DNA of 64,000 bases from Acidobacteriota bacterium (GCA_046757405.1 JBHHYE010000010.1:19386-83385); one strand, 5' to 3'; positions 14,386 to 40,413 are shown, counted from the stretch's first letter. The notes: generated from the sequence alone by a model not told the origin. Program-made: numbers and translations.

Positions 14386-15339
14386 GTGAGCGCAGCGGGA
14401 ACCTCCTTCCATCGATCGGTGCTCGTCGTGGAGGACGAGGAGCTGTATCTGCGGGCGCTGGTCATGGATTTCGAGGGACGGGGTTACCGGGTCACGGCCT
14501 GCCGGGATCTGGAGAGCGGCGAATCGGCTTATCGCGAGATGATATCCCGGGGGAGCGGGCTGCTCCTGGTGATCGATCTGATCCAGCCGGGAGAGAATGG
14601 CGGATACCTGGGCGGACTGGATCTCCTCCGCAGGTTGCGGCCCGGGCCGGGCGTGGAAGTGGTCGTGCTGGCCGACAACGAGGCGGCGTGGCTCCAGCGG
14701 GCGGTCTCCAGCCTGGGGGCCGCTCGCCTGGTTCGCAAGCCGGACCTGAGGCGAACAGCGCCGGAGCATCTGGATCGCGCGGTTCAGGCTTTTCTGGCTG
14801 ATCTGTCCCAGCAGCCGCGAGAGGAGGACCGGCCGCTCCCGGCGCCGGTGAGCGACATCGGCGAGGCCGGCCTCCTGCTGGGCGCCCTGGAGGACCTTCG
14901 CCGGGCCCCTGACCGCGCCAGTGTCCTCCTGGTGGCGATGCGGCGCGCGGCGGATATGGCCTCCCGGGGCATTCTCTTCGATGTGGAGGGTGACCATTTG
15001 CGCAGTCTTGGAGGTTTTGGACTGGGCGACGGGATGGATGCGGCCACCCGCGACCGGATTCTCGAGCTCGACCAGGACACCCTCCCCGGACGCGCCTTCT
15101 GGTCTGCCCGGCTCCAGCGCGCCCGGCGCGGCGACCTGGCCGCGCTCATGCCCGATCCGCCCATGCCCCTGCCCGAGGAAGCCGTGGCGCTCCCCATCAT
15201 CGGGCCGGAAGGAGTGGCCGCTGTCCTCTACGCCGACACGGGCGGCGGAGAGGCTCCGTTCAAGGGGCTTCCCGTTCTCTCCGCCATGGCCGATGCGGTC
15301 AGCCTGGCCCTGGAGGGTGTGCAGGGGCGGTCCGGCTGA
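14386..15339 (+). CDS. Response-regulator receiver domain fused to a C-terminal GAF-like domain
   Basis: N-terminal REC fold ('VLVVEDEE..', phospho-acceptor-like D in 'LLLVIDLIQ', K in 'LVRKP'); C-terminal ~170 aa alpha/beta region with GAF-like pattern; first gene of the Che-like cluster. Confidence 0.55.
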   Translation: MSAAGTSFHRSVLVVEDEELYLRALVMDFEGRGYRVTACRDLESGESAYREMISRGSGLLLVIDLIQPGENGGYLGGLDLLRRLRPGPGVEVVVLADNEAAWLQRAVSSLGAARLVRKPDLRRTAPEHLDRAVQAFLADLSQQPREEDRPLPAPVSDIGEAGLLLGALEDLRRAPDRASVLLVAMRRAADMASRGILFDVEGDHLRSLGGFGLGDGMDAATRDRILELDQDTLPGRAFWSARLQRARRGDLAALMPDPPMPLPEEAVALPIIGPEGVAAVLYADTGGGEAPFKGLPVLSAMADAVSLALEGVQGRSG

Positions 15340-15450
15340 TCCTTGCGTCCCCCGGCAGGTTCCTCCCCATTTGAAGCGCGTGCCCCGGGGACTTATATAT
15401 TGCGGCATGCGGCGCATGCTGAGGACCATTCCCCGGGGCGGGAGGAACTG

Positions 15451-15825
15451 ATGCAGGTTCTGGTGGTCGATGACTCGCCGTCGATGCGGGCCTTCATCGC
15501 GGGCACTCTCGAGGCCGCGTTCGCGGCCCATGTGACGGAGTCCAGCAATGGCTTCGAGGCGCTCAAGGTTCTCCCCGGCAAGAGCTTCGACGTGATCATT
15601 GCCGACATCAACATGCCCGACATCAACGGGTTGGAGCTCCTCGGTTATTTGAAACAGCACCCCGCGTATTCCTCCATCCCGGTCGTGGTGGTCTCCACAG
15701 CGGTGAGCGATGGTGACCGCCAGCGCGGACTTGCGGCCGGGGCCGCGGCTTACATGAGCAAGCCACTCCAGCCCCAGGAGCTGGAGGACACGCTGCGCTC
15801 CCTCCTGGTCGTGCGGGACGACTGA
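15451..15825 (+). CDS. cheY: CheY-like single-domain response regulator
   Basis: GGAGG RBS before ATG 15451. 'VLVVDDSPSMR', 'DVIIADINMPDINGLEL', 'PVVVVST', 'YMSKP'. Confidence 0.85.
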   Translation: MQVLVVDDSPSMRAFIAGTLEAAFAAHVTESSNGFEALKVLPGKSFDVIIADINMPDINGLELLGYLKQHPAYSSIPVVVVSTAVSDGDRQRGLAAGAAAYMSKPLQPQELEDTLRSLLVVRDD

Positions 15826-15831
15826 GGCGCC

Positions 15832-17859
15832 ATGGAAGATCGGCGATCGAGTCGAGAGCAGGCCGAGTTTCTCGCCGAGGCGCAAGAACTCTTGGAGCGC
15901 CTGGGTGATGATTTGCAGAAGGCCGAGGCCGAGGCGGGCCGCGGCCCGGTCTCGATCCAGAGGCTGAACGGGATGTTCCGGGCCATCCATTCCCTCAAGG
16001 GCCTTGCGGGGATGATGGGCCGCTCGCGGCTGGTGGAGTTCACCCATCACCTCGAGGATTACATGGATCGCCTCCGCATGGGACAGGTAGAAATGAATCC
16101 GCAAGTGGTGAATCTCCTGTTCGAGGCCCACGAGCACCTGGAGCGACTGGTCGAGGGAAGGCCGGTTGATGAGCCCGCGCTGGGCGTCCTGGAGGGCCGG
16201 ATAGGCGGCCCGAAAGAGAGCGCCCAGGTTCCGGCCGCGGCCGCGGATCCTGATGCTCTCGCGGGTCTGGACCCACGGATACGGAACGCGCTGACTCGCT
16301 TCGAGGAACATCGCCTGCGGGAGAATCTTCAGGAAGGGCGGGAGATTTTCTTGGTTCATGTGAGTTTCTCCCTGGACACCTTCGATACCGAACTGCGGGA
16401 GCTGATCGAAAAGCTGAATTCCGGGGGCGAGGTCCTGAGCACGCTTCCCTCCATGAGCGCCGAAGAGGTTGCGGACAGACTGGCATTCGTTCTGCTCCTG
16501 GCCACGGCGTGGAGCGAGGAGCAAGTGAAGAAGGAAGCCGGCCGACCGGTGGTGCTGGAACGCTGGGTCGGGACCCGGGCGGAGCCGCCGGTGAACCCTG
16601 CCGCTCCCGCTCCTGCCGCCGCAGGGAGCCAGGAAGAGGATGGGGCGGTCGACGGACCGGCCTGGCTCGCCATGGGCAGCGTCCGGGTGGATCTGAAACG
16701 CCTAGACCGGATCATGAACTCGGTTGGCGAGCTGGTCTTGTTCAGAAAAGCGATCGGTTCCGTGGCGCGGAAACTGCTGGATCGCGAAGGAACCCATGCT
16801 CTGGGCCGGGACCTGGATCGTTCGACTCGGGATCTGGACAAGAGAATCCACGAGCTGCAGAAATCGGTGATCGGTGCGCGCATGGTGCCCATGAGCCAGA
16901 TCGTGGGGCGGCTCTCCCGGCTCGTCCGCAAGGTGTCCGCGCAGGCGGGAAAAAAGGTGGTCCTGGTGGCGCGGGGGGAGAGAACCGAGCTGGACAAGGT
17001 CATGATCGACCGCCTTTTCAGCCCTCTCATTCATCTGGTGCGGAATGCCATTGACCACGGTATTGAACCGCCCGCTGTCCGCCGCGCGGCAGGAAAGAAT
17101 GAAACGGGAACTCTGGAGCTGTCGGCCATCCAGGGCGGCAACTCGGTGCTTGTGACCCTGGCCGACGATGGCAGAGGCCTGGATGTGGAGGCGGTGCGCC
17201 AAGTCGCGGTGAGACAAGGGATCCTTGCCGCGGACACGGAGGTCGATCTGGAGGTGGCGCGGGAGCTGATCTTCCAGCCGGGATTTTCCTCCGCTGTTTC
17301 GGTCGATGAGGTGTCGGGGCGCGGTTTCGGTCTCGATGTGGTGCGCCGGGACATTGCGAGTTTGAGTGGGAGCGTGCGCTTGACGAGTCAGCCGGGCCAG
17401 GGCACCTGCGTCGAGCTCGAACTGCCCATCACGCTCGCCATCATCCAGTGCACACTGATCGGAGCGGGGCCATCGATGTTTGCGGTGCCTGTGACGTCCC
17501 TCGTGGAAACCTTGCGGTTCCGTCCCGGGCGGTTGGAAACCATCGCCGGAAGTCCGGTGATCCGCCTGCGTGGTGAGATCTTGCCGCTCGTCGATTTGCG
17601 CACTTACTCTCGGCTGGGACACCAGGCCTCTGGCGGTCTGGAGTTTGTCGTGGTCGCCCGCTGCGGAGAAAAAAAGCTCGCACTCGGGGTCGAGACCCTC
17701 AGCGGCCAGCAGGAGGTTGTCATCAAACCGGTCGACTCCCGGCTGGAGAATATCCCCGGCCTGGCCGGAGCCACGGAGATCGGCGAGAACCAGACCGCGC
17801 TGGTTCTCGATGTGACCTCACTCGGTGCGGATGTGCGGACCCTGAGCGGCGCGGCTTGA
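15832..17859 (+). CDS. cheA: Chemotaxis histidine kinase CheA
   Basis: HPt 'FRAIHSLKG', dimerisation domain, HATPase 'HLVRNAIDHGIE', 'DDGRGLD', 'GRGFGLDVV', C-terminal CheW-like domain. Confidence 0.9.
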   Translation: MEDRRSSREQAEFLAEAQELLERLGDDLQKAEAEAGRGPVSIQRLNGMFRAIHSLKGLAGMMGRSRLVEFTHHLEDYMDRLRMGQVEMNPQVVNLLFEAHEHLERLVEGRPVDEPALGVLEGRIGGPKESAQVPAAAADPDALAGLDPRIRNALTRFEEHRLRENLQEGREIFLVHVSFSLDTFDTELRELIEKLNSGGEVLSTLPSMSAEEVADRLAFVLLLATAWSEEQVKKEAGRPVVLERWVGTRAEPPVNPAAPAPAAAGSQEEDGAVDGPAWLAMGSVRVDLKRLDRIMNSVGELVLFRKAIGSVARKLLDREGTHALGRDLDRSTRDLDKRIHELQKSVIGARMVPMSQIVGRLSRLVRKVSAQAGKKVVLVARGERTELDKVMIDRLFSPLIHLVRNAIDHGIEPPAVRRAAGKNETGTLELSAIQGGNSVLVTLADDGRGLDVEAVRQVAVRQGILAADTEVDLEVARELIFQPGFSSAVSVDEVSGRGFGLDVVRRDIASLSGSVRLTSQPGQGTCVELELPITLAIIQCTLIGAGPSMFAVPVTSLVETLRFRPGRLETIAGSPVIRLRGEILPLVDLRTYSRLGHQASGGLEFVVVARCGEKKLALGVETLSGQQEVVIKPVDSRLENIPGLAGATEIGENQTALVLDVTSLGADVRTLSGAA

Positions 17860-17884
17860 GGCGCGCGGCCGTCGGAGGCCTGGC

Positions 17885-18406
17885 ATGAGCGGTATGGGAA
17901 AGGCAGCAGAGACACCGTCACCGGGGCTGGACCCGCTGACGGCGGGCACGGGCGGTGGCGGGCCGAACCGGGCCGCGGAAGCCGGTCCCCGCCAGTTTCT
18001 CACCTTTTGCCTCGCAGGCGAGCGCTACGGGATCATCATCGACAGCATCGTCGAGATACTCAAGTACAGGCAATCGACTCCCATCCCCAGGGCACCGGAG
18101 GTGGTGCATGGCATTGTCTCGCTGCGGGGCCATATCGTGACGGTGATCGATGGACGCTTGCGGCTCGGGCATTCCAAGGCCCAGGTTGGCCCGGCTTCAC
18201 GCATCATCGTTGTCCGTGACGGTGCGGAGACGGTTGGAATCCTGGTGGATGAGGTCCTGCAGGTCATGAAGCTCCCGGCGGATGCCATCGGCCCGCCGCC
18301 AGAAACCGTGGCCCAGGCGGGTGAGTGTGGGATTCTCGGCGTCTGCGATACAAGGCAGGAATCGATTCTCATTCTCCTGGACGTGCATGAGTTCTTGAAG
18401 GTTTAG
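17885..18406 (+). CDS. cheW: Chemotaxis coupling protein CheW
   Basis: 'FLTFCLAGERYGI', 'VHGIVSLRGHIVTVIDGR', 'GILVDEV'. Confidence 0.9.
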   Translation: MSGMGKAAETPSPGLDPLTAGTGGGGPNRAAEAGPRQFLTFCLAGERYGIIIDSIVEILKYRQSTPIPRAPEVVHGIVSLRGHIVTVIDGRLRLGHSKAQVGPASRIIVVRDGAETVGILVDEVLQVMKLPADAIGPPPETVAQAGECGILGVCDTRQESILILLDVHEFLKV

Positions 18407-18415
18407 GAGGGAACG

Positions 18416-19312
18416 GTGGACAGAACATTGCTCATCGGGTGCCCGGCGTGCGGCCGGCGGTATCGATTCGACGCCCAGCGCTTCGGAACTACCGGAATCA
18501 GAATCCGTTGTCGTTTCTGCCAGGAGATCATGCGAGTGGAGATCAGCCAGGAGGAGACGACCGGCTCGGGCCCGGACTCTCCCGCTCCGGAACCAGGGCA
18601 GCCGGGACCCTTCTCCGCCGCGCCGGACCCGGTGGAGGCGGAGCCTGGCGCCCTGGTGGCTGACAGCGAAGGATCTGTCCGGTCGACGGTGAGCGAGACG
18701 CTGCGCGCGTCGGGCTATCTGGTTGATGAAGTCGAGAACGGGGTGGAAGTCCGGCGCTTCGTGGCGGTTCACCGGCCGCAGGTCGTTTTTCTGAATGTCT
18801 TTCTTCCCCACGTGCTGGGTGTCACTCTCTGCTCCGAGATCAAACGACATCCGGAGCTGTCGAAAACCCGGGTCATCCTGGTGGGGTCCCTCTACCGCCG
18901 CGATCGGTTCATGCGGGACCCCAGGGATCTCTACGGGGCGGACGGTTTTCTGGATGCCAACGGCTCGCCGGAAGAAGTGCGCCAGCGGGTTCGCGATCTG
19001 GCTGAAACGCTGAAGCCTGTCACGGGGCCGGGCGAAATGGATGGATCCGGCGATGCCCTTGAAGAGCTCAGGCGGCTGGCGCGGATCGTGGCCGGTGACA
19101 TCATCCTTTACAATCCCGAACGGGCGGAGGAGGAGATTGCGAGCGGCCGGTTCTTTGACACTTTCGCGGAGGAAATCCGCGAGGGGGAAGCGCTGGTGAA
19201 CCGCCGCTTTCCGGATATCGCGGATGGAGGGTCTCTTTATCATGAAACCCTCCGGGAAGCGGTCGTGCAGCATTCGGCGGCGGCCGGCATCCCGAGCCCT
19301 GTGGGTCGCTAG
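18416..19312 (+). CDS. MJ0042-type zinc-ribbon + receiver (REC)-like domain protein
   Basis: GTG start after a GGAGG RBS. N-terminal 'CPACGRRYRF..IRCRFCQEIM' double-CxxC zinc ribbon; disordered linker; REC-like fold ('GALVADSEGSVR', 'VVFLNVFLP', 'ILVGS'). Confidence 0.55.
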   Translation: MDRTLLIGCPACGRRYRFDAQRFGTTGIRIRCRFCQEIMRVEISQEETTGSGPDSPAPEPGQPGPFSAAPDPVEAEPGALVADSEGSVRSTVSETLRASGYLVDEVENGVEVRRFVAVHRPQVVFLNVFLPHVLGVTLCSEIKRHPELSKTRVILVGSLYRRDRFMRDPRDLYGADGFLDANGSPEEVRQRVRDLAETLKPVTGPGEMDGSGDALEELRRLARIVAGDIILYNPERAEEEIASGRFFDTFAEEIREGEALVNRRFPDIADGGSLYHETLREAVVQHSAAAGIPSPVGR

Positions 19313-19318
19313 CCGGCC

Positions 19319-21526
19319 ATGGGAACGCCCGGCGATCATGGCATGATCCTGGATGGGCGGGAGAGCATCGGGGAGCTCATCTCGCTTCTGGGACACTCGA
19401 ACCTCCGGGTCCGCCGCTCCGCGATTGCAGCCCTGGTGGAGAGGGAGCCCTCTGAAACCCTTCCGGGCGTGCTGGCGGCCCTGGGGGATCAGGAGAACGC
19501 CGCCGCCCGCAGCGCAGCGGGCGATGTCTTGCTGCGGTACGGGCAGCGTATCCTGGAACCTTTGACCCGCACCCTGGATCCGGATGGCCACCGGGACCGG
19601 ACCATCCAGCTCCTGGATATTCTGGCGTGTATCCCGGCCCGGGCCACCGTCAAGGCCGTGATTCCTCTGGCTTCCCATCCCGACCCGTCGGTGGCCGCCA
19701 GTGCCATCAGCTGCCTCGGGACCCTGCGCGATCCTTCATCGGTTCCGACCCTGCTGGAAGTCTTGGACAGCCAGAAGCGCTGGCAAACGTTCTATGCCAT
19801 CGATGCGCTTGGAGAAGTGGGGCATGCGGCTGCGGTGAACCGCCTGGTGCCGCTGATCAAGGATCCCTATTACCGCAAGGCGGTGCTCCGGGCACTGGGA
19901 AAGATTGGCGATGAGTCAGCGGTTGGTCCCCTGGTGGAGGCCCTGGCGGCGGGGACGCCGCCTCCTGACCGGACAGCGCTGGCGTCTCTCGACGAAATGG
20001 TGGAGCGCTCCCGGAGTTCGCTGGGGCGGGAGAGCTTGATCGCCCGGATCCGTGGAGAGCTGCGGATCCGGCAGGATGCGGCCCTCATCGACGGTCTGGC
20101 CCAGCTATTGCGGGAGGGCGCCATCGAGACGCGATGCCAGGCGGCGCGCGTCCTCGGCTGGATGGGCGGCAAGGAGGTGGCGGCGCCACTGGTCCATGCG
20201 TGTGGCGAGCCTTTTCTCGCGGACACGGCGGCCCAGGCTCTCCAGAGTCTCGAAGGCGGGCATGTGGAGGAGATCCTGGATGCGATGCGCTCGGTGGCTC
20301 TTTCGGGACTTGCGCTGTGCCGGCTCATCAAGATCCTGGCGGGTACGCTGACCGAGCGGACGGAACAGTTCTTCATCATGGCGCTTGAACACGAGGAGGA
20401 AGACGTCCGGCAGGCCGCGGCGGCGGCGCTGGCCCGGGCTGCTGAAGGTCGGTACCTGGAGATCCTCGTGCGCGTCCTGGGCGACCCGGCGCCCTTGGTG
20501 TCCAGCGAGGCGGTGAAAGGACTGACGGCGATTGCCGAGCGGTCGGAAGCCCTGCGCGAGCACGTGGCCGGCCGGGTCGAGGGGTTGACGGCCTCGCCTT
20601 CCCCCGAGATGCGGGGAGCCGCCCTCCAGGTCATCGCTAGACTGCATGGAGATGGAGCCGGGGAGATCCTCGACCTGGCCCTGCATGACCCCGTGGCCGT
20701 CGTCCGGCGGACCGCTGTGGCCTTGCTGGGGGAGGATCCCGATCCCGATCGCCTGTGGCGGCTCAGCGTGGCGCTGGCCGATGAGGATTCGCGGGTGCGG
20801 GAAGAAGCGGTTCACGCGGTGGGCCGTCTGCAAGACCAGAGAGCCCGCGGCGTTCTCCTCTCTTCCTTGCACGATCGGAGCCCCTGGGTCAGGTGCCGCG
20901 CGGCGCGGGCCCTGTCCGACCATCCCGCGGCGGAAGTCCGGGTGGCCTTGGAGCAGGTGGTCCGGAACGATATCTTGCCGGTCAAGGTTGCCGCCATCGA
21001 AGCTCTTGCATCACTCTGGCCCGCGACCCGGGACTTCTTGGTCGAAGGGACCCGGAGCCAGGAAGCGGAAATCCGGCGGGCCTGTCTGGTCGCCCTGGCG
21101 CGCCGGGAAGGGGACGCGCCCATGGAGGTCCTCGCGGGCGCTCTCGAGGACCCGGCCTGGCCAGTGCGTTGCGCGGCGGCGGAAGCCCTGGGAGCAAGCG
21201 GAGACGCGGCGGCCTTCGAGCCGGTCTCCCGAGCTCTGGATCGGGAGAGGGATGGCTCCGTGCGCCGGGCCCTGATCGGCGCTCTTTACCACTTGGATGC
21301 CGAATCGGCGTTGCCTTTTCTCATCGCCGGCCTGTCCGAGAAGGATATTGCCGATACGGCCGGAGAACTGCTGGTCCGCGGGCGAACTCTGTTTGCAGAC
21401 GAGCTCCGGGCCGAGTGGGCTTCGGAAATGGACCCGGCGATCCGGGAAGGGCTGGCGGTGGTCCTCGAGGAGGTCGGGAGGCGGGAAGCCCAGGGAACGG
21501 CGGCAGAAGAAGGCGGCCCGTCGTGA
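19319..21526 (+). CDS. HEAT/PBS-lyase-like repeat protein (735 aa)
   Basis: More than 12 tandem ~30-aa HEAT-like repeats ('VRRSAIAALV', 'VRCRAARALSDH', 'VRCAAAEALGASGD' etc.) embedded between cheW and cheR. Confidence 0.7.
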   Translation: MGTPGDHGMILDGRESIGELISLLGHSNLRVRRSAIAALVEREPSETLPGVLAALGDQENAAARSAAGDVLLRYGQRILEPLTRTLDPDGHRDRTIQLLDILACIPARATVKAVIPLASHPDPSVAASAISCLGTLRDPSSVPTLLEVLDSQKRWQTFYAIDALGEVGHAAAVNRLVPLIKDPYYRKAVLRALGKIGDESAVGPLVEALAAGTPPPDRTALASLDEMVERSRSSLGRESLIARIRGELRIRQDAALIDGLAQLLREGAIETRCQAARVLGWMGGKEVAAPLVHACGEPFLADTAAQALQSLEGGHVEEILDAMRSVALSGLALCRLIKILAGTLTERTEQFFIMALEHEEEDVRQAAAAALARAAEGRYLEILVRVLGDPAPLVSSEAVKGLTAIAERSEALREHVAGRVEGLTASPSPEMRGAALQVIARLHGDGAGEILDLALHDPVAVVRRTAVALLGEDPDPDRLWRLSVALADEDSRVREEAVHAVGRLQDQRARGVLLSSLHDRSPWVRCRAARALSDHPAAEVRVALEQVVRNDILPVKVAAIEALASLWPATRDFLVEGTRSQEAEIRRACLVALARREGDAPMEVLAGALEDPAWPVRCAAAEALGASGDAAAFEPVSRALDRERDGSVRRALIGALYHLDAESALPFLIAGLSEKDIADTAGELLVRGRTLFADELRAEWASEMDPAIREGLAVVLEEVGRREAQGTAAEEGGPS

Positions 21527-22395
21527 ACGAGTCCGCGAACCTCTCCTTTTCGGCCGACCTGGCACCGCCGAAGCTTTCCGAGGACAGCCTCAGGCTGGTC
21601 CTGGAGCTGCTCAACCGGCGCTTCGGCTTCCAGTTCCATCGCTCATCCCAGGAGATGGCCCGGACCCGGATTGCGCGTCACATGGAGGAACTGGGCCTCG
21701 CCGATCTTCGTGATTATTACTACCGGTTGTTGTATGACCCGGAAGGGGACGCCGAACTGGACAATCTCTTCGAGCTCTTGGTCAACAACGAGACCTATTT
21801 CTTTCGCGAGGAGAGCCAGATCTGGACCTTTGCGGATGAAATTCTCTCCCAGCGTCTCACGGCCCGGCCAGAGAGCCGGATTCGGGTCTGGTGTGCAGGA
21901 TGTTCCACGGGCGAGGAACCTTATTCTCTGGCCATCGCAACTCTCGAACGCCAGGGGCCCAGGGCGAACCGGGTGGAGATCTTCGGCTCGGACCAGTCCA
22001 GAAAGGCCCTCGATCGCGGCCGCATGGGCAACTTCAGCTCGTTTGCTTTCAGGAGCACCCCCCCTGAACTGCGAAAAAAATACTTCGAGGCGGAGAGCAA
22101 GAACCGCTGGCGAATCGTTCCCGCGGTCCGGCGGATGGTGCAGTTCGGGAGATGCAATCTTCTGGGGTCGGCGGGAGATTTGCCTCTGGTCAAGTTTGAC
22201 GCCATCTTTTGCCGCAACGTGCTGATCTACTTTGATCGAGAGGCCAGGCGCCAGGTGATCAATCTCTTCTATGAGCGGCTGGCGGAGGGCGGATACCTCT
22301 TCCTGGGCCACTCGGAGTCGCTCCTGGATCTTTCGGACCGCTTCGAGTTCGCCCAACTGAGCCAGGACGTTGCCTACCGGCGGGACGCGCCATGA
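21523..22395 (+). CDS. cheR: Chemotaxis protein methyltransferase CheR
   Basis: GTG start overlaps the HEAT-protein stop (GTGA). 'ETYFFRE', 'RVWCAGCSTGEEPYSLAI', 'FDAIFCRNVLIYFD'. Confidence 0.9.
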   Translation: MNESANLSFSADLAPPKLSEDSLRLVLELLNRRFGFQFHRSSQEMARTRIARHMEELGLADLRDYYYRLLYDPEGDAELDNLFELLVNNETYFFREESQIWTFADEILSQRLTARPESRIRVWCAGCSTGEEPYSLAIATLERQGPRANRVEIFGSDQSRKALDRGRMGNFSSFAFRSTPPELRKKYFEAESKNRWRIVPAVRRMVQFGRCNLLGSAGDLPLVKFDAIFCRNVLIYFDREARRQVINLFYERLAEGGYLFLGHSESLLDLSDRFEFAQLSQDVAYRRDAP

Positions 22396-23528
22396 GACGC
22401 GTTCTCATCGTCGATGACTCGGCTTTCAACCGGGTGACCCTGGAGCGCGCCCTCCGGGATGTTCCCGGGATTCAGGTCGTGGGCACCGCAGTGGACGGTT
22501 ATGATGCCATTCGCCAGATCCGGCGGTGGCAACCGCACGTCATGACCCTCGACCTGGAAATGCCGCGGATGGATGGTCTGAGCCTGATTCGCTGGGTCAT
22601 GCAGCGCCACCCGCTGCCCATCCTGGTGGTGACGTCACGGGAATCAAATTACTCCCTTTTCGAGGCGCTGGAGCTCGGAGCGCTTGATTTTGTCCTCAAG
22701 CCGGGAAGGGTCAGCCCGGATCTGGCTTCCATTCGCCAGGATCTGATCACCAAGATCCATCAGGTCGTGGATATTCCCATGCACGCGCGCCGGTACCGGC
22801 CGGGGGATCACCGGACAGCCGCGGACACGCCGCCAGCGCCGGCGGTTTGCCTGGAACCACTGGCCGCGGGCCATGTGCCCCGGGTGATTGCCATGGTGGC
22901 ATCCACCGGCGGGCCGGCTGCTCTGCAAGTCATTCTCAGAGCGCTGCCCGGGACGTTCCCGATTCCCATCATCGTGGTCCAGCACATGCCGTCCCATTTC
23001 ACGCAGGCCTTTGCCAGACGTCTGGACGAGACCGCTTCCTTGAAGGTGGTGGAGGCCAGGAAAGGCGAGCAGGTCCTTCCGGGCATGGTCTTGATCGCGC
23101 CGGGCGGCTCCCACATGATGCTGGTCGAGGGGAGCCAGCGAAGCTTGTGGATTGCGCTCCGCCCGGGCCTCGAGACGGATCCGTACATTCCCTCCGGCGA
23201 CCGACTCCTGGCATCGGTGGCGGCGGTTTGCGGGGACGCTGGAGCGGGGGTGATCCTCACCGGCATGGGACAGGACGGATGCCAGGGCCTGAAACGGTTG
23301 CGCGAAGCGGGCGGGCTCACCATGGCCGAATCCGAGGAGTCGGCCGTGGTCTACGGCATGCCGCGGCATGCCCTCGCGGCCGGAGCGGTGCAGGAGATCA
23401 TGCCTCTGGAGCAGATCGTGGCCCAGATCAAACTGATGGGCCAGGCGGCGGCATCCGCCGCTCTTGGCGGACCGGCGACCCAGGCTACGGATCGATTCGC
23501 CGCCCAGGAGAGAAGGGAGAACGCATGA
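22392..23528 (+). CDS. cheB: Chemotaxis response regulator protein-glutamate methylesterase CheB
   Basis: N-terminal REC ('VLIVDDSAFNR', 'MTLDLEMPRMDG'); C-terminal methylesterase ('ASTGGPAAL', 'VVQHMP', 'GMGQDG'). Confidence 0.9.
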   Translation: MRRVLIVDDSAFNRVTLERALRDVPGIQVVGTAVDGYDAIRQIRRWQPHVMTLDLEMPRMDGLSLIRWVMQRHPLPILVVTSRESNYSLFEALELGALDFVLKPGRVSPDLASIRQDLITKIHQVVDIPMHARRYRPGDHRTAADTPPAPAVCLEPLAAGHVPRVIAMVASTGGPAALQVILRALPGTFPIPIIVVQHMPSHFTQAFARRLDETASLKVVEARKGEQVLPGMVLIAPGGSHMMLVEGSQRSLWIALRPGLETDPYIPSGDRLLASVAAVCGDAGAGVILTGMGQDGCQGLKRLREAGGLTMAESEESAVVYGMPRHALAAGAVQEIMPLEQIVAQIKLMGQAAASAALGGPATQATDRFAAQERRENA

Positions 23529-24394
23529 CGAGAGAGTACTGGAGAGGGAGCCTGGCCCCTACGGCTTACCTCGATGCCGCTCTGCAGAGCGTGCGGGACG
23601 CCTGCGAAAAACTGGTTGAGGAAAACCGTGTTCTCCGAGCCGATCCCAAGCGGCCGGTTGGCATTCAGCCGGAGCAGATGAAGGTCCTGGAGGAACGGAT
23701 CGCGCAGCTGGAAGCCGAAAACCGCGGGCTCCACCAAGCCGTTGTGTCTGCGGTGGATCAGCAGGCGTCCCGTCAGGAGGACCTCCTCGCCAGTCTCTAC
23801 GTGGCCGGCTTCCAGTTGCATCGCTCCCTGGACATGGATGCGGTGGTGTCGTCGATGAAGGAAATTCTCATCAACCTGGTCGGCGCAGCGAGCTTTCTCA
23901 TTTATCTCCATGATGCCCGGGATCGCAGCCTCATCCGGATCGCTGATGAAAGTAACGCTGCGCCGCGACTCCGGCGCATGGCCGTGGGCGAAGGAATCCT
24001 GGGGGTGGTGGTCAAGACGGGGATTGCGTACTTTGACCAGGAATCGCCCCAGGGCGACTACCACAACCCGATCGCCTGCATCCCGCTCAGAGTCAAGACG
24101 GAGGTCGTGGGGCTCATCCAGATCTGCACCCTGCTGGTCCAGAAGGGCCAGCTCAATGCGCAGGATCACGAGTTGCTCTCCATGCTGGCGGAGCATGGCG
24201 GTATCGCCCTCCTGGCCGCGAGTCTTCACCGCCGGTACCGGAAGGAGGCGGAAGCGGAATCCCTGTGCTGGAGCGATGTGCTCCTCCCGTCCCTGGAATG
24301 CCCGGATGTGGACCCTGTCTTGAGAATCAGCGATGGCCAGGGGAACGGCGCGTCCAGCGCGGCCGGGACCACGGCTGGGGAGGAGAGGGGATGA
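23525..24394 (+). CDS. Coiled-coil + GAF-domain protein
   Basis: ATG overlaps the cheB stop (ATGA). N-terminal heptad coiled coil ('MKVLEERIAQLEAENRGL'); GAF-like core ('GILGVVVKTGIAYF', 'IPLRVKTEVVGLIQI'). Confidence 0.55.
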   Translation: MTREYWRGSLAPTAYLDAALQSVRDACEKLVEENRVLRADPKRPVGIQPEQMKVLEERIAQLEAENRGLHQAVVSAVDQQASRQEDLLASLYVAGFQLHRSLDMDAVVSSMKEILINLVGAASFLIYLHDARDRSLIRIADESNAAPRLRRMAVGEGILGVVVKTGIAYFDQESPQGDYHNPIACIPLRVKTEVVGLIQICTLLVQKGQLNAQDHELLSMLAEHGGIALLAASLHRRYRKEAEAESLCWSDVLLPSLECPDVDPVLRISDGQGNGASSAAGTTAGEERG

Positions 24395-24795
24395 TGGAGA
24401 CCCTGAATTTCCTGGTGGTGGAGGATTCACCGACCATGAGGCAACTCATCAGCTTTCCCCTGCGGCGGTTCTCCGATTGCCGCATCATCGAGGCGGTGGA
24501 CGGGGCGGACGCGCTGCGGAAACTGGCCTTCGAGCCGGTTGATATCGTCATCACCGACATCAACATGCCGATCATGGACGGCTTGAAGCTCGTGAGTGTG
24601 GTGCGCAGCAACCCGGGGACGGAGACTCTTCCCATCATCATCGTCACCACCGAGGGAGCCGAGGAGGACCGCCGGCGCGGGATGGCTCTGGGGGCGGATG
24701 CTTACGTGGCGAAGCCTATCGAGGGGGATGAGCTGATCCGAACGGTGACGGATGTCCTCCGGAAGCGCGGCCTGACCAGTCCGGCTGTGACTTGA
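24391..24795 (+). CDS. cheY: CheY-like single-domain response regulator (second copy)
   Basis: ATG overlaps the GAF stop (ATGA). 'FLVVEDSPTMR', 'DIVITDINMPIMDG', 'PIIIVTT', 'YVAKP'. Confidence 0.85.
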   Translation: MMETLNFLVVEDSPTMRQLISFPLRRFSDCRIIEAVDGADALRKLAFEPVDIVITDINMPIMDGLKLVSVVRSNPGTETLPIIIVTTEGAEEDRRRGMALGADAYVAKPIEGDELIRTVTDVLRKRGLTSPAVT

Positions 24796-32930: not shown

Positions 32931-35900
32931 ATGAAGAACGTCTCCTCGCCGCGGCCGGGCGGGCGGCGACTCGTTCTAGGCGGCCTGGCCGTGGCGGCCA
33001 CGCTGGTCTGGTTCCTGGCGGGCTGGCGGCATGCCCCGCTGGACCGCTACCTGGTGAAGGATTCCTCCTGGCTGGCGGTCACGCCGCGGCGCTTGTCCCC
33101 GGGGTGGCACTGGTGCCCCCCGCCTTTCTTCACCGTGCGCACCTTCCCCGCCGAGGCCAGGATGACATCGTTCGCCACCGGGCTCACGGAGCCGTTTCTC
33201 CGGACGCCGGACGGGACATCGGTGGCCCTCATGGGGAACTTGACCTGGAGGGTGGACGAGTCTGGCCTGTCCCGGCTGGCGACCCAGGTGAGGGGGAACA
33301 TCGAAAAGGATCTTCTGGCACCGGCTCTCCGGGACGCGGTCCGGCAGCTCCTCCAGAGCTCCCGGCTACCGCACGCCGACCGGGAAGGAGAGGAGGCGGT
33401 TTTCCAGGAACTTGCCCCCCGCCTGGCCGCGGCAGGCCTGGCGCTGGTGAGCCTGAATCTGGACCGGGTGGGGACCGTGGCGGCGATTGCGGCCGCGGTC
33501 CAATCCGGTGGGGGAAAGCCGATCCCGGGTGCCCGGGTTCTCCTGGTGGGTTGGGATGGCGCCGACTGGAATATTCTCGACCCGCTGCTCGAAAAAGGCG
33601 AGCTTCCCCACCTGGCGCATCTCATCGAAGCAGGAGCCAGGGCCCGGCTCAAGACGGTCGCCCCTGTCCTGTCGCCGGTGATCTGGACCTCCATCGCCAC
33701 GGGCGTCCGCCCGGAAAAGCACGGGATTGTCGACTTCGTGGCGGTGGACCCGAAAACCGGCCGGCAGGTCCCGGTGACCAGCAATCTACGGCGAGTCCCG
33801 GCCCTGTGGAATCTGGTCAGCGAGCGGGGACTTCAGGTCGGCATGATCGCCTGGTGGGCCACCTGGCCCGCCGAGCAGGTCCGCGGCTATCTGGTCAGCG
33901 ACCGCATTGCCTATCAGCTCTTCGGTCTTGGCGAACGGCTGCCGGATAGCCCGGAGGGAAAGACCTGGCCCCCCGGCCTGATCGATGAGATCCGTCCGTT
34001 GATCGAACGGCCGGAGGAGGTGAATGACGACGAGGTGCGAAGGTTCGCGAACCTCCCCGCCGATCAGAAGGATCTTTCACCAGCAGACCTGGAGTTGCTC
34101 TCGCAGTTCAAGGTGGTTCTGGCGGCGACCGACACGTATGAGAAGATCGCGTTGCGGCTGGCGAACCGTGATCACCCGGCGCTGCGCAGCGTGTACTTCG
34201 AGGCCAGCGATACCGCGGCGCACCTCTTCATGCCCTTTCGTTCCCCCCGGCGCGCCGGGGTCGATCCGGACCGATTCGCCATCTGGCGAGAGAGCGTGGA
34301 TGCGGTGTACCGGCATTTGGACGAGATCCTGGGGCGCCTCCTGCGCACCGTGGATGAGAAAACCACGGTCCTGGTCGTCAGCGATCACGGTTTCCGCTCG
34401 GGAGACAACCGGCTGACAGGGGACGCGCGGATCGGCGCGGGTCGGGCCGCCGAATGGCATCGAAAATACGGTGTCCTGGTGGTTTCCGGGCCGGGCGCCC
34501 GGGCGGGCGCTCGGCTCACGGAGGCATCGGTGGTGGACATCGCGCCCACCATCCTGGCTCTTCTGGGCCTGCCGATCCCGCAGGCCATGGACGGGACGAT
34601 CCTGGAAGGCGCCCTGAGCCAGGACTTTCTCGAGGCCCATCCGCCGTTCCATCAAGGAGGCGCCTTCCTCGAGGTCGATGCCTCACAGCCGATTCCCTCA
34701 GCCTCGGACCGGGAGCGGCTCCGTCGCCTGGAATCACTGGGCTACATCACACCGGCCACGGTGGGAAGTCTCCAACAGGAGGAGAGCACCGCTTACAACA
34801 ACCGGGGAACCATCTTGCTCTCGGAAGGCAAGACGCAGGAGGCCATTGCCGAGCTGCGGAAAGGGCTCCAGCGAGCTCCTGCCGCGATCGGCCTGCGGCT
34901 CAACCTCGCCCGCGCCCTGCGGGGCGCCGGACGCGATGAGGAGGCACTGGAGGTGCTGCAGCCCGCGCTGTCGGGAGCAACAACCGAATCTTGGATGGCG
35001 GAGAATTTTGCGGGCAATATTTACATGGACCGCGGTCAGCTGGATCAAGCCGAGAGACATTTTCAAGCTGCCCTGAAGCTGGAACCGAACTCCGCTCCCG
35101 TTTTTCTCAGCCTCGGACTCTTGTGGGAAAAACGCGGCCAGCCGGGGAAGGCCCTGGAGGAGTACCGCAAGGTGAGCCGGATGGATCCCGATTCCGCGGA
35201 GGCTTTCAACAACATCGGGAACATCTATCGGGCCCAGGCGCTGCAGGCCCGGGGGCGTGGTAAAGAGTCGGAAGCCGCCACCCTGTTCCAGGATGCGGAG
35301 AACGCCTACCGGGCCGGGCTCCAGGCGGATCCCGACTTCATCGGGACCTATAATAATCTGGCCCTGGTATACCAGGACACAGGACGCAACGATGAGGCGA
35401 TGGACCTCTACCGCCGCGCCCTGGATCGGTCGCCCGATCAGGCGGTGGTCCACAATAACCTGGGGAGTCTGTATTTTCAGGCTGGGCGCCTGAAGCTGGC
35501 CCGCATCGAATTTGAAAAAGCCATCCAGACCCGGCCGGACTACGAGTCAGCCTACAATAACCTGGGCGCGGTTCTCGGCCGCCTTGGAGAAACCGAACAG
35601 GAGCTGGCTGCCTACCAGAAGGCGGTGGAACTCGACCCTGGGTATGCCGACGCTTACCACAACCTGGGGCTGGTCTACCTGCGCGGCGGCGAGGATGAGG
35701 CCGCTGAGAAAAACCTCAAGCGTGCCACCCAACTCAACCCCGAAGATCTCTCCGCCTTCGCGGCTCTGGGGAGTTTCTACCTCGATCACGGTCAGTCCAT
35801 GAAGGCGGTGGCGATGTTCAACGCCGCACTGGCCATCAACCCCGACCTCTACGTCCTGCGCAACCAGCTGGCGGAGGCCTATCTCGCCGCGGGCAAGCGC

Positions 35901-35990
35901 AAGGAAGGGATCGCGGAATTCCAGCGTTCCCTCGCGACGCAGCCGGACCAGCCGACCGTGCGGGAGCGGCTTGATTCCCTCGGGGCTTGA
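32931..35990 (+). CDS. Multidomain protein: N-terminal TM + SPFH/band-7-like region, central type-I phosphodiesterase/nucleotide pyrophosphatase (alkaline-phosphatase superfamily) domain, C-terminal TPR array
   Basis: 'LLVGWDGADWNILDP..SPVIWTSIATGVRPEKHGI', 'VLVVSDHGF' (AlkP-superfamily metal ligands); 10 or more TPR repeats from ~aa 640 ('YNNRGTILLSEGKTQEAIAELRKGL'..). Confidence 0.65.
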   Translation: MKNVSSPRPGGRRLVLGGLAVAATLVWFLAGWRHAPLDRYLVKDSSWLAVTPRRLSPGWHWCPPPFFTVRTFPAEARMTSFATGLTEPFLRTPDGTSVALMGNLTWRVDESGLSRLATQVRGNIEKDLLAPALRDAVRQLLQSSRLPHADREGEEAVFQELAPRLAAAGLALVSLNLDRVGTVAAIAAAVQSGGGKPIPGARVLLVGWDGADWNILDPLLEKGELPHLAHLIEAGARARLKTVAPVLSPVIWTSIATGVRPEKHGIVDFVAVDPKTGRQVPVTSNLRRVPALWNLVSERGLQVGMIAWWATWPAEQVRGYLVSDRIAYQLFGLGERLPDSPEGKTWPPGLIDEIRPLIERPEEVNDDEVRRFANLPADQKDLSPADLELLSQFKVVLAATDTYEKIALRLANRDHPALRSVYFEASDTAAHLFMPFRSPRRAGVDPDRFAIWRESVDAVYRHLDEILGRLLRTVDEKTTVLVVSDHGFRSGDNRLTGDARIGAGRAAEWHRKYGVLVVSGPGARAGARLTEASVVDIAPTILALLGLPIPQAMDGTILEGALSQDFLEAHPPFHQGGAFLEVDASQPIPSASDRERLRRLESLGYITPATVGSLQQEESTAYNNRGTILLSEGKTQEAIAELRKGLQRAPAAIGLRLNLARALRGAGRDEEALEVLQPALSGATTESWMAENFAGNIYMDRGQLDQAERHFQAALKLEPNSAPVFLSLGLLWEKRGQPGKALEEYRKVSRMDPDSAEAFNNIGNIYRAQALQARGRGKESEAATLFQDAENAYRAGLQADPDFIGTYNNLALVYQDTGRNDEAMDLYRRALDRSPDQAVVHNNLGSLYFQAGRLKLARIEFEKAIQTRPDYESAYNNLGAVLGRLGETEQELAAYQKAVELDPGYADAYHNLGLVYLRGGEDEAAEKNLKRATQLNPEDLSAFAALGSFYLDHGQSMKAVAMFNAALAINPDLYVLRNQLAEAYLAAGKRKEGIAEFQRSLATQPDQPTVRERLDSLGA

Positions 35991-35999
35991 CCTTGGTTT

Positions 36000-38384
36000 T
36001 CAGGTCCGGACATGCAGAATCAGGTAGATGCCCAGCCCGCCAAAGAAGATGTTCGGCGCCCAGGCGGCCAGCAGGGGAGGGAGAATCTCCGCTGTTCCGA
36101 GCGCGTTGAAGACGGCGAGCGCCGCCCAGTAGACAACCGTCAGGCCGATGGAAAGGCCGATGCCGAACAGGGAGCCCCGGGAGCCGACCATGAACGAGAA
36201 CGGAAACCCCAGCAACACCATGAAGAATGGGATGATGGGGAAGGAAACCTTTCTCGCCAGGGCCACTCGGAGGCTGGTGGTCTCGTAGCCGCGCCGTGCA
36301 AGATCACGGATGTAGTTCCGTTGATCGTGGTAAGACATCTGGTCTGGTTCCCTCTGGATGCCCCAGAGGAGAACGGTATCTTCATTCTGAAAGAAAGCGG
36401 GTGTCACACCGAGGTTGACCTCCCGCCGCTGGAAAACGTTCACATCCGAGCCGTCCGGCGTGAAGACCCGTTCCCATCCGTCCTGGAAGATCCAGGAGTG
36501 GCCGTCGTACCGGGCGCGCGCGGCCTCGATCCGGGTTCGAAGAGCGAACGTCACCGGGTCCAGCTGGTGAATGCTGAGGCCCTGGAGAACTCCTATCTTG
36601 GGTGACCCTCCTTCGAAGTGGTAAAGACGGTCGCCGTCACCCATGACCCAACGGTGCCGGGGGTTCTGATTGCGGGGCGACCGTCCGGCAATGCGGTCGC
36701 GCAGCGACTCAGCCACCCGGTTGCTGGTTGGAAGAACCTTGTCTTGCAGAAAGTAGCCAAAGGCGCAGATGAGAAGGGTCACCGTCAGAAGGGGAAGGAG
36801 AAGGCGGTAGATGCTCACACCCGCGGCCTTGACGGCGGTGTCCTCGCGGCCCCTGGCCATGAGTCCCAGGGCCACCAGAGTGCCGACCAGACAGGCCACG
36901 GGAAGAATGGTGGTGGTCATCCGGGGGACGAGGAAAACGAGATACTTGATGATCAGATGCAGCGGGACAGTGCGATACATCATGTCCTGAACGAGGGAAC
37001 GGAATTCCACCAGGAGAAAGACCATATAGACGGTCAGAAGAACGAAGAGAAAGACGCGAAAGAAGATCGAAATCAGATGGAGATCGATCAAGAGGGGGAA
37101 GCGAGGCGCGGCATCGAGCCGGCGGGACGGGGGACTGTCGCGCAGGGGACGAGGGGGGGGCACGCGACGCCGTGCCGGCTGCCACTCGCGGATCTTTTGC
37201 CAGAGCCGGGCTGTCAGCCCGAGCGCTGCCGTATGGAAGAGCCACTGTCTGCCGCCGCGGTAAAACATGAGAAGAAGGGCGAGCGCCAGAAAGACCATAT
37301 TCGGGAGCCAGAGGGCGAGAACGGCGTCCATGCGGCCGTTTTGCGCCAGATCATGGAGCACGGAATAGGAGACCCAGTAAACCAGGACGATGGCCAGGCT
37401 CAGCGCAAAGCCGGAGGCCTTGCTACCGCGGCGGTTGACGACTCCCAGGGGAAGACCGAGGAGGGCGAAGATGATGGCCGCCGCGGGGAGCGCGAAGCGC
37501 TCGTGAAGGTGCGTTCGCGCCAGGGCCACGCGGATTCTCCGGGCCACCGGGTTGGGATCTTGGCGTGACAGCTGAATCTCGCGCATCAGCTGGGTCGTGG
37601 ACATCTCGCGGTGGTTCCGCTGGAGGTTGCGCGAGAATGCCCGGATATAGGCCGGCGGTTCTCGGCTTTCCTGATAGGTGTTGAAGGTGATCACCGAGTA
37701 ATCTTTCGGGCCGGCATCAAAGCGCCGGGTGTGAGTGCTGCCGTCCTCGAGAAAGAGATTCACGCGGCCTGTTTTCTGGTCAAAACTCATCTCGCCGCGG
37801 CGGGCCACGGTGATGCGCTCGCTTTCACCCGTGGGATCTTTCTCGTAGATGAAAACCCGCTGGAGACCGCCCGTCTCCGGCTCGCGGGCATCGTAGTAAA
37901 GGAGAAGGCCTGGGATGGATTCGTGAAAGATGCGCGGGCCGATTCGATCGGTATTGACATAGCGCGAGAGGTAGACCTCGCGTTTCATGAGATGATGCAG
38001 ATAGGTGCCCTGGGGCGCCACCACGGCGATGAAATAGAAGGAAATGGCCGTGCCCAGGAGACCCAGGAGGAAAGGCGCCAGGAAAAGGCGGCGAAAGCGG
38101 ACCCCGGCGGCCTGCATGGCCAGGAGCTCTGAATCGGACGAGAGGCGGCCGACGCCGATGAGAGTGCCCAGGAGGATGGACATGGGCAGGCTCACCACCA
38201 GGAGCTGCGGCAGCTGGTAATAAAGGAGACGCAGGATGACTCCCAGGGCCAGCTGGTTCTCGACGGCCTCCCGGGCCACCTCGAAGAGGACCGTCATGAA
38301 GAGAAGAAAGATGTAGAGGGCGAGACTGAGGATGGACGGACCGAGAATTTCCCGGAAAATGTAGGAATCGAGTCGTTTGAGCAT
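36000..38384 (-). CDS. lptFG: Fused LptF-LptG lipopolysaccharide export permease (YjgP/YjgQ family), single ORF
   Basis: Start ATG 38384 ('MLKRLDSYIFREILGP', LptF-like N-terminus). Two complete 6-TM YjgP/YjgQ modules joined by a Pro/Arg-rich linker; second module begins 'RFPLLIDLHLISIFFRVF' with no internal start or stop. Confidence 0.7.
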   Translation of the reverse strand: MLKRLDSYIFREILGPSILSLALYIFLLFMTVLFEVAREAVENQLALGVILRLLYYQLPQLLVVSLPMSILLGTLIGVGRLSSDSELLAMQAAGVRFRRLFLAPFLLGLLGTAISFYFIAVVAPQGTYLHHLMKREVYLSRYVNTDRIGPRIFHESIPGLLLYYDAREPETGGLQRVFIYEKDPTGESERITVARRGEMSFDQKTGRVNLFLEDGSTHTRRFDAGPKDYSVITFNTYQESREPPAYIRAFSRNLQRNHREMSTTQLMREIQLSRQDPNPVARRIRVALARTHLHERFALPAAAIIFALLGLPLGVVNRRGSKASGFALSLAIVLVYWVSYSVLHDLAQNGRMDAVLALWLPNMVFLALALLLMFYRGGRQWLFHTAALGLTARLWQKIREWQPARRRVPPPRPLRDSPPSRRLDAAPRFPLLIDLHLISIFFRVFLFVLLTVYMVFLLVEFRSLVQDMMYRTVPLHLIIKYLVFLVPRMTTTILPVACLVGTLVALGLMARGREDTAVKAAGVSIYRLLLPLLTVTLLICAFGYFLQDKVLPTSNRVAESLRDRIAGRSPRNQNPRHRWVMGDGDRLYHFEGGSPKIGVLQGLSIHQLDPVTFALRTRIEAARARYDGHSWIFQDGWERVFTPDGSDVNVFQRREVNLGVTPAFFQNEDTVLLWGIQREPDQMSYHDQRNYIRDLARRGYETTSLRVALARKVSFPIIPFFMVLLGFPFSFMVGSRGSLFGIGLSIGLTVVYWAALAVFNALGTAEILPPLLAAWAPNIFFGGLGIYLILHVRT

Positions 38385-38479
38385 GGAAACTGATGATATC
38401 CGGCAGGTGCGGCCGGAACAAACCACCAGGGTTGTTTGTCCGCCGACCGGTTATTCCCAATGTCCGATAACGTATATTA

Positions 38480-38713: not shown

Positions 38714-39595
38714 TCAGGAACCGCTTTCGATCTCCGAGCGGAGCTCATCGAGAATGTCCTGGAGCGCCTGGATGAGCTCCTTGCGGTCGACGGTTTCACG
38801 TTCCGCGAATCTGAGGGTCAAGGAGTAGGGGCGATCCGCCGTTTTGAAGCGGAAGGTATAGCCGGATGTAGAGGCGCCTCCCCCGGCGGGCCGGCTGGAC
38901 GCTCCCCTTCCAGAGGGCTTTCTCTCACCTGGCCGGAGGAGTTTCCGGAGATCGTCGCGGCTCAACTGCTCCTTGACGATGGTCTCCACCATCTGTTCCA
39001 TGGCGGTTTCATCAGGAAGCCGGCTGATCTCGAGCAGAATGGAACGACTCAAGATATTGGCGCGGCGGGCCAGCCTGCGAATGCTGGCGGGGACCGTGGA
39101 CAGGGAGAGGCTCTCCGTGATGGACGTTCGGGATCGCCCGAGCTTTCTGGCAATTTCCTCGTGGGTGAAGTGGAATCTTTGCTGCAGCTGGAGGAGCGCA
39201 TCGGCCTCCTCGAAGGCGGTCAAGTCCCGCCGCTGGATATTCTCGACCAGGGAGATTTCCAGACAGCCCCGCTCATCGGCCTCCACCTCGATACAGGGGA
39301 TCCGTGTCAGGCCGGCCTTGCAGGCCGCCCGGTAACGGCGTTCTCCGGCGATGATCTCGAAACGGTCTCCCTTGGGGCGCACGAGAATCGGCTCGAGGAT
39401 CCCCTTCTCTTGAATAGAGGCGACCAGCTCCTGGATGCCGGAGAATTCCCGCCGGGGCTGATTGGGGCCGGGATCGACCAGGTCCAGGGGGATCTGCCGC
39501 CCGATGGTTCTTTCGGGACGAGAGGTGAGATGGTCCACGTAATGCTCGTCATGTCGCATTCTCTTGGTATCGGGCAGTCCTCTGAGCTTAGCCAC
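38714..39595 (-). CDS. parB: Chromosome partitioning protein ParB/Spo0J
   Basis: GTG start; 'ILEPILVRP..FEIIAGERRYRAA', HTH 'THEEIARKLGRSRTSI'. Confidence 0.9.
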   Translation of the reverse strand: MAKLRGLPDTKRMRHDEHYVDHLTSRPERTIGRQIPLDLVDPGPNQPRREFSGIQELVASIQEKGILEPILVRPKGDRFEIIAGERRYRAACKAGLTRIPCIEVEADERGCLEISLVENIQRRDLTAFEEADALLQLQQRFHFTHEEIARKLGRSRTSITESLSLSTVPASIRRLARRANILSRSILLEISRLPDETAMEQMVETIVKEQLSRDDLRKLLRPGERKPSGRGASSRPAGGGASTSGYTFRFKTADRPYSLTLRFAERETVDRKELIQALQDILDELRSEIESGS

Positions 39596-40343: not shown

Positions 40344-40413
40344 GCGAGGGAACGGCCCCGGCGGTCGAAGTGGGAGACGCACATCAACGACGCCTCTTTT
40401 TCCGGAACGGGTA

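Follow-up and report, generated by a model that had tools for sequence, protein, structure and literature searches.

Chemosensory gene clusters that contain no gene for a methyl-accepting chemotaxis protein (MCP) were described in Geobacter as the "beta group" by Tran et al. (2008), who found Geobacter che clusters not to lie near flagellar genes and could cite only unpublished hints that the beta group controls extracellular matrix (PMC2577667). The group is conserved in Geobacter, Myxococcus, Stigmatella, Anaeromyxobacter and Plesiocystis, and was described in 2008 as unique to delta-Proteobacteria (PMC2577667). Chan et al. (2017) reported that GSU2222 (the CheA EsnC), GSU2221 (an ATPase) and GSU2220 (the CheW EsnB) are required for electrode colonisation, that EsnB and EsnC bind an unlinked, GAF-containing class-40H MCP (EsnA, GSU1704) whose deletion has the same phenotype as the deletion of EsnB or EsnC, and that the network also includes EsnD, a diguanylate-cyclase response regulator (PMC5585712). 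Here we analyse a ten-gene chemosensory-like cluster at positions 14386-24795 of a 64,000-nucleotide stretch of DNA from an Acidobacteriota bacterium (GCA_046757405.1 JBHHYE010000010.1:19386-83385; the whole stretch is referred to below as the window). We consider it probable (roughly 0.7) that this cluster is the Acidobacteriota orthologue of the MCP-less Desulfuromonadales (Geobacter beta-group) cluster, and that it encodes a non-flagellar, Che-like pathway.

The ten genes are co-directional on the + strand and follow the order REC-GAF, CheY, CheA, CheW, Zn-ribbon-REC (ZnREC), HEAT-repeat protein, CheR, CheB, GAF protein and CheY (Table 1). Pfam directly backs the domain calls for nine of them, the exception being the GAF domain of gene 1, for which the call rests on orthologues and a structural model; with these, the gene order and domain content given in an earlier note, made from the sequence of the window, are borne out. 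A cluster in a Geobacteraceae metagenome-assembled genome (MAG; L002) begins with DUF4388/PATAN-REC-GAF, CheY, CheA, AAA_22 ATPase, CheW, CheY and CheW, and continues after this last CheW with Zn_ribbon-REC, HEAT, CheR, CheB, GAF and CheY, so that it shares with the window the succession CheY-CheA-...-CheW-ZnREC-HEAT-CheR-CheB-GAF-CheY. When reverse BLASTP searches were confined to the two clusters, the reciprocal best match of every window gene (10/10) was the L002 gene in the same position. Moreover, the window CheA matches the Geobacteraceae CheA that adjoins the AAA_22 ATPase (EsnC-like), and the best match of the window CheW is the ATPase-adjacent CheW of L002 (EsnB-like). The run CheA-AAA_22 ATPase-CheW is found in L002 and in other Desulfuromonadales loci, which therefore match GSU2222-2221-2220, and the order ZnREC-HEAT-CheR-CheB-GAF-CheY recurs in five further loci (L009, L026, L030, L053, L061). 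Like the window cluster, the Geobacter beta group (cluster 5 of G. sulfurreducens) has no mcp gene of its own. The earlier note had regarded this exact combination of genes as undescribed; since the same order occurs in Geobacteraceae and other Desulfuromonadales, and fits the published clusters (PMC2577667, PMC5585712), that claim does not stand.

Several points weigh against this orthology or against the pathway drawn from it. The window cluster has neither the AAA_22 ATPase, nor the extra CheY-CheW pair, nor the gene 1 PATAN domain of the Geobacteraceae version. Clusters of the L002 type are here equated with GSU2212-2224 and with MXAN_4751-4759 (Che8 of Myxococcus xanthus) by gene order and published descriptions; the Esn phenotypes are the sole outputs shown; and the MCP searches in this host span the window, with input by an orphan receptor a prediction. 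The supplement of Tran et al. (2008) gives no GSU or MXAN locus tags, and a 2021 review of Geobacter does not mention the cluster. The host also differs, being a member of the Acidobacteriota, whereas the published beta group is delta-Proteobacterial. As for the ATPase, it is missing in the window and in two other Acidobacteriota MAGs (L004, L005) and is present in Desulfuromonadales, in Nitrospirota and in other Acidobacteriota loci such as L051, L058 and L065. The AAA_22 ATPase is thus an accessory gene, and its lack does not disqualify a cluster from this type.

Table 1. Features of the chemosensory-like cluster, with amino-acid identity of each product to its positional counterpart in the Geobacteraceae locus L002.
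Feature	Position	Strand	Product length	Support	Identity to L002
Gene 1, REC-GAF	14386-15339	+	317 aa	Pfam REC 26 bits; orthologues; AlphaFold2 model; Foldseek	24%
Promoter-like element, TTGAAG-17 nt-TATATA	15371-15399	+		Sequence; kept in two orthologous loci	
Gene 2, CheY	15451-15825	+	124 aa (from ATG)	Pfam 93.5 bits	39%
Gene 3, CheA	15832-17859	+	675 aa	Pfam Hpt, H-kinase_dim, HATPase_c, CheW; NCBIfam CheA 353 bits	38% (full length)
Gene 4, CheW	17885-18406	+	173 aa	Pfam 108 bits	39%
Gene 5, Zn-ribbon, pseudo-receiver and C-terminal helical domain (ZnREC)	18416-19312	+	298 aa	Pfam Zn_ribbon_4, Response_reg	25%
Gene 6, HEAT-repeat protein	19319-21526	+	735 aa	Pfam HEAT_2 213 bits	25%
Gene 7, CheR	21523-22395	+	290 aa (GTG start)	Pfam CheR 191 bits and CheR_N	40%
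Gene 8, CheB, with REC	22392-23528	+	378 aa	Pfam 201 bits; NCBIfam CheB 352 bits, over cut-off	42%
Gene 9, GAF protein	23525-24394	+	289 aa	Pfam GAF_2 37 bits	38%
Gene 10, CheY	24391-24795	+	134 aa	Pfam 91 bits	56%

The lack of a receptor gene in or near the cluster, as the earlier note had it, was confirmed across the 64 kb window: a tblastn search with the signalling domain of Tsr gave a best E-value of 1.3, and blastp queries with two bona fide MCPs taken from related clusters returned nothing at E<=1e-6. Related clusters elsewhere were located through the GAF protein of gene 9, which is a marker of the HEAT-CheR-CheB-GAF-CheY module. When GTDB species representatives were scanned with an alignment of the GAF protein, relatives of this marker turned up in at least 593 species genomes. 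Among the best 80 of these at least 593, Nitrospirota (including Thermodesulfovibrionales) account for 37, Acidobacteriota for 30 (with record titles that include Thermoanaerobaculia and Aminicenantes) and Desulfuromonadales for 7, alongside one Fischerbacteria MAG and a few unclassified genomes. The cluster type is therefore far wider than its published delta-Proteobacterial range.

These loci, annotated with the window proteins and real MCPs as queries, fall into two variants. In the first (variant A), found in Acidobacteriota and Desulfuromonadales, the order is ...CheW-ZnREC-HEAT-CheR-CheB-GAF-CheY, with no MCP. In the second (variant B), found in Nitrospirota, it is CheA-AAA_22-CheW-MCP(-MCP)-CheW-HEAT-CheR-CheB-GAF-CheY, with no ZnREC. 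The Nitrospirota module (for example L016, L036 and L041) has GAF proteins 35-40% identical to that of the window, and one or two MCPs where the window has ZnREC. Among the loci with enough upstream sequence, 23 (from Acidobacteriota, Desulfuromonadales and a few others) carry a ZnREC gene directly upstream of HEAT, 25 (from Nitrospirota) carry an MCP gene there, and none carries both. Given that Geobacter uses an unlinked MCP and that Nitrospirota have theirs within the cluster, the retention of CheR and CheB beside a missing receptor, an oddity to the earlier note, is not paradoxical.

The second, smaller MCP of L036 aligns almost without gaps to PcaY (6s18; 227 versus 226 residues), and relative to Tsr it has two symmetric 14-residue insertions. 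By this indel pattern, judged against class 36H, it is a class-40H receptor, the one Nitrospirota MCP tested, and the assignment agrees with the Geobacter annotation (PMC5585712). The large in-cluster MCPs of Nitrospirota, of ~950 residues (L016:2474-5347, L036:484-3339, L041:2486-5413), have a periplasmic sensor (Mcp40H-20_sensor or sCache), a HAMP domain, an MCPsignal domain and a C-terminal Phosphonate-bd domain. It is unusual for a receptor to have such a periplasmic-binding-protein-like domain fused behind its cytoplasmic signalling domain.

The ZnREC protein of gene 5 has Asn instead of Asp at the acceptor position of its receiver domain (VFLNVFLP) and lacks the conserved Lys. In a 28-sequence alignment, 27 of which are ZnREC proteins, Asn occupies this position in all Acidobacteriota members, so the receiver is a pseudo-receiver in this phylum, whereas the Desulfuromonadales proteins retain both Asp and Lys. 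In the Acidobacteriota lineage, gene 5 is thus predicted to be unable to take phosphate, and the protein is probably a scaffold or adaptor. Its AlphaFold2 model (predicted local distance difference test score (pLDDT) of 86) matched only receiver domains in the PDB by Foldseek, with none for the helical domain of ~80 residues at its C-terminus (19028-19312). This domain, also represented by P0192-P0196 and P0205, carries the conserved motif RLARxIxxDIxLYN...EIxEG and has no Pfam match. An exhaustive phmmer search found it in 307 representative clusters, at the C-termini of Zn-ribbon-REC proteins, alone in proteins of ~90-130 residues, and as 2-5 tandem copies in Zn-ribbon-REC proteins of 600-990 residues. 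A word-indexed homologue search with gene 5 reached no named Geobacter or Myxococcus protein.

This distribution bears on whether the cluster needs a conventional receptor. One alternative is a receptor-independent Che module, in which ZnREC replaces the receptor as input or scaffold for CheA-CheW where the cluster has no MCP, or in which CheR and CheB methylate a non-MCP substrate such as the HEAT or GAF protein. The mutual exclusivity of ZnREC and an in-cluster MCP directly upstream of HEAT would fit such a module, as would the overlap of the HEAT stop codon with the cheR start and the uncharacterised conserved domain at the ZnREC C-terminus. Nevertheless, the ZnREC/MCP split tracks phylum boundaries and may reflect lineage history only, and Geobacter has a cluster of the ZnREC type in which the unlinked EsnA binds EsnB and EsnC and gives the same deletion phenotype (PMC5585712). 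In addition, the consensus for MCP methylation sites is present in none of the window HEAT, GAF and ZnREC proteins, and among 57 HEAT homologues it has no conserved position, with a single chance occurrence, whereas the in-cluster MCPs of Nitrospirota have 1-3 such sites. A module of this kind is therefore very unlikely. We would give still less credence to the more specific proposal that the variant A ZnREC, with its tandem-capable C-terminal domain, replaces the Nitrospirota MCP as the input or scaffold for CheA and CheW while CheR and CheB act on a different target; were it true, a Che core would signal without a canonical transmembrane receptor.

For three conserved components of the cluster, HEAT, GAF and Zn-ribbon-REC, no role is known from any organism. 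The best-conserved part of the HEAT protein, across 57 family members, is its N-terminal ~190 residues, a candidate docking surface. The HEAT protein was itself considered as a replacement for the MCP, and this was rejected because clusters that contain MCPs also keep HEAT. In the GAF protein of gene 9, a helical extension precedes the GAF domain.

The junctions between genes were next compared with the earlier proposal that nearly all of them overlap and that the ten genes form one translationally coupled operon. Only four of the nine junctions are overlaps, each of 4 nt and all within genes 6 to 10; four others are gaps of 6-25 nt, and 111 nt separate genes 1 and 2. This last gap contains a promoter-like element (Table 1). 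The window, L004 and L005 share its -35 hexamer, TTGAAG, unchanged and its 17-nt spacer length, and the -10 hexamer differs at its last base only (TATATA in the window, TATATT in L004 and L005). The element is conserved despite diverged flanks, in loci whose proteins are 42-57% identical. A generic promoter scan, whose rule demands T at position 6 of the -10 hexamer, missed it; the generic promoter and terminator scan found no convincing terminators within the cluster. Transcription of genes 2 to 10 probably starts from this element, which would make them a single transcription unit, with gene 1 lying upstream of its promoter. Near-universal overlap is accordingly not seen, and a single operon probably takes in genes 2 to 10 but not gene 1.

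For the product of gene 1 itself, neither Pfam nor NCBIfam matches a GAF domain. Two of its orthologues, however, give weak full-length GAF_2 matches in Pfam (E-values of 7e-5 and 1e-4). An AlphaFold2 model built on 19 homologues (pLDDT 83) had as its best Foldseek matches 6oaq, a sensor kinase with REC and GAF domains, and GAF domains on their own (3ci6, with a target TM-score of 0.72, 5w10, 3eea and 3oov). These data uphold the REC-GAF assignment. A profile-profile comparison of the gene 1 and gene 9 GAF families was not significant (hhalign probability 0.9%), indicating that the two domains are not close paralogues. When aligned to E. coli CheY, the gene 1 receiver is atypical: it keeps the acceptor Asp and the Lys, has Ala for Thr/Ser, and contains a 5-residue insertion after the Asp. 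The protein aligns to the C-terminal 350 residues of Geobacteraceae DUF4388(PATAN)-REC-GAF proteins, without the PATAN domain (for L002 2001-3698, the BLASTP identity in Table 1 extends over 345 residues).

The PATAN/DUF4388 domain has been linked to gliding and surface-motility regulators. Its presence in relatives of gene 1, together with the frequent control of pili by Che-like systems, raises the alternative that the upstream pathway is as proposed here and that it controls type IV pili or surface motility in place of matrix, biofilm or development. The window gene 1 protein, however, has lost PATAN, no pil genes were found among the window open reading frames (ORFs) scanned by Pfam, and the CheA, with one Hpt domain and no receiver, differs from the ChpA/PilL-type kinases found in type IV pilus systems. 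We regard a pilus output as unlikely. (The Pfam scans covered the larger window ORFs, a few of which were without a match, and left out the ORFs located at ~58-64 kb and several short ones.)

The core Che proteins could also be taken for those of an ordinary flagellar chemotaxis system, with receptor and motor genes at other sites in the genome, since MCP genes are often scattered in bacterial genomes and the cluster encodes a full set of CheA, CheW, CheY, CheR and CheB with intact conserved motifs. CheA consists of P1, P3, P4 and P5, with the phospho-His motif IHSLKG; neither a P2 domain nor a receiver was detected by Pfam. CheR has the motifs CSTGEEPYS and FCRNVLIYFD, CheB has ASTGG, QHMP and GMGQDG, and the receivers of genes 2, 8 and 10 carry the canonical phosphorylation residues in alignment with E. 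coli CheY. The ATG of gene 2 is preceded by a GGAGG Shine-Dalgarno sequence, and the CheY of gene 10 is the component most conserved across phyla (56-65% identity). Against a flagellar role, no flagellar, CheC, CheD, CheX, CheZ or CheV genes were found among the scanned ORFs of the 64 kb window, in agreement with the earlier note as to flagellar genes and CheC/D/X/Z. We know of no flagellar class with HEAT, GAF and ZnREC accessories, and published reports place the cluster type in M. xanthus, a bacterium without flagella. In Geobacter, che clusters lie away from flagellar genes (PMC2577667) and esn mutants are affected in electrode colonisation (PMC5585712). On this evidence a flagellar system is highly improbable.

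The sole match to the methylation-site consensus in the ten window proteins falls in CheA, at residues 263-272 (16618-16647; AAGSQEEDGA) in the P1-P3 linker. About 0.09 matches would be expected by chance in CheA, and this one is probably meaningless.

The surroundings of the cluster are those of a core chromosomal region (G+C of the window ~65%). The housekeeping genes ribH and nusB directly adjoin it upstream, and lptE, holA, dnaE, metK and ahcY, likewise housekeeping genes, lie downstream, with parAB, an rpsA-like gene, serS and others farther out in the window. The HEAT protein of gene 6 has a 100% identical counterpart in an Acidobacteriota MAG, and NCBI gene calls match the lengths of genes 1, 5 and 6 (P0168, P0121 and P0001, respectively). 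All ten genes recur in unchanged order in L004 and L005, where the HEAT proteins are 55-60% identical to gene 6 and the cluster is flanked as in the window, with ribH-nusB at one end and lptE-holA-dnaE at the other. The occupation of the same housekeeping locus in these genomes suggests vertical inheritance of a core function, and not an island; it points to the cluster being a vertically inherited part of the core chromosomal region, and its conservation at this locus in the Acidobacteriota lineage argues for a core function.

Three other features of the window were recorded. An 808-residue ORF at 36000-38426 (- strand) has two LptF_LptG matches (495 bits) and appears to be a fused LptF-LptG permease. 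The genes parB and parA at 38714-40382 (- strand) suggest that this region may be near the chromosomal origin. At 32931-35990 (+ strand), a 1019-residue protein combines a Band_7/SPFH domain, a type I phosphodiesterase/sulfatase-like domain and a long TPR array.

Under the reading that the cluster is the counterpart of the Geobacter beta group, signalling may proceed as follows. CheW (gene 4) and CheA (gene 3) would form arrays with at least one class-40H MCP whose gene is not linked to the cluster, as shown in Geobacter. CheR and CheB would methylate and demethylate these unlinked receptors for adaptation, which would explain the retention of both enzymes. The predicted acceptors of phosphate from CheA are CheB and the CheY proteins of genes 2 and 10, with the gene 1 REC-GAF protein as a possible further one, while ZnREC, non-phosphorylatable in this lineage, would probably be a scaffold or adaptor. 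Phosphorylated CheY would act by binding protein partners and not a motor, with the CheY of gene 10 as the main candidate. The HEAT protein, which is inherited with it and is likened here to the HEAT-repeat protein associated with Che7 of M. xanthus, and the GAF protein would be its likeliest partners; unlinked response regulators might be targets too, much as the Geobacter network includes the diguanylate cyclase EsnD. Flagellar rotation is probably not what the pathway controls in the cell, the more probable output being matrix, surface or developmental behaviour, and the label of an "alternative cellular function" system is suggested by genomic context and orthologues.

What the window adds to the published picture is the wider range of phyla, the exclusivity of ZnREC and MCP, the Acidobacteriota pseudo-receiver, the promoter-like element and the unannotated C-terminal domain of ZnREC. 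For work in Geobacter and Myxococcus, the predicted 40H receptor class, the gene 10 CheY as the likely output, the candidate docking surface at the HEAT N-terminus and the ZnREC/MCP exclusivity offer experimental handles.

Two Myxococcus systems are relevant to this comparison. Che8 of M. xanthus (MXAN_4751-4759) comprises CheY, CheB, a 290-residue CheR, two CheW, CheA and CheY, with no MCP (PMC3945109), and Che8 of C. coralloides is also without one (PMC6194562). According to PMC9040617, Che8 is a system of unknown function, although CheA8 contributes to the phosphorylation of an orphan regulator. Like the window cluster, Che8 has no MCP, a CheA without a receiver and a 290-residue CheR without TPR, and is bounded by a CheY on both sides; Myxococcus is among the beta-group organisms named by Tran et al. 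(2008) (PMC2577667). Unlike the window, it has two CheW and a longer CheA (862 residues). Compared by its published description, Che8 is probably the Myxococcus counterpart of the window cluster.

The earlier note had instead likened the cluster to Che7 of Myxococcus. Che7 does share with the window a HEAT-repeat protein within a non-motility Che cluster, and L006, a third and more distant architecture which in its order CheY-CheA-CheW-cytoplasmic MCP (795 residues)-HEAT-CheR-CheB resembles Che7 of M. xanthus, has the same HEAT-CheR-CheB succession (HEAT ~29% identical to gene 6), a shared core. However, Che7 has its own cytoplasmic MCP of ~800 residues adjoining CheW (PMC3945109), and the window has none. 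L006 is also without the ZnREC, GAF, terminal CheY and REC-GAF genes, all of which the window has, and the window CheA is 31% identical to that of L006 versus 38% to that of the beta-type cluster. The kinship to alternative Che systems thus holds, but the closer counterpart is probably Che8. Taken together, these comparisons make the cluster not a new kind of system but a trimmed Acidobacteriota member of a described, functionally obscure type.

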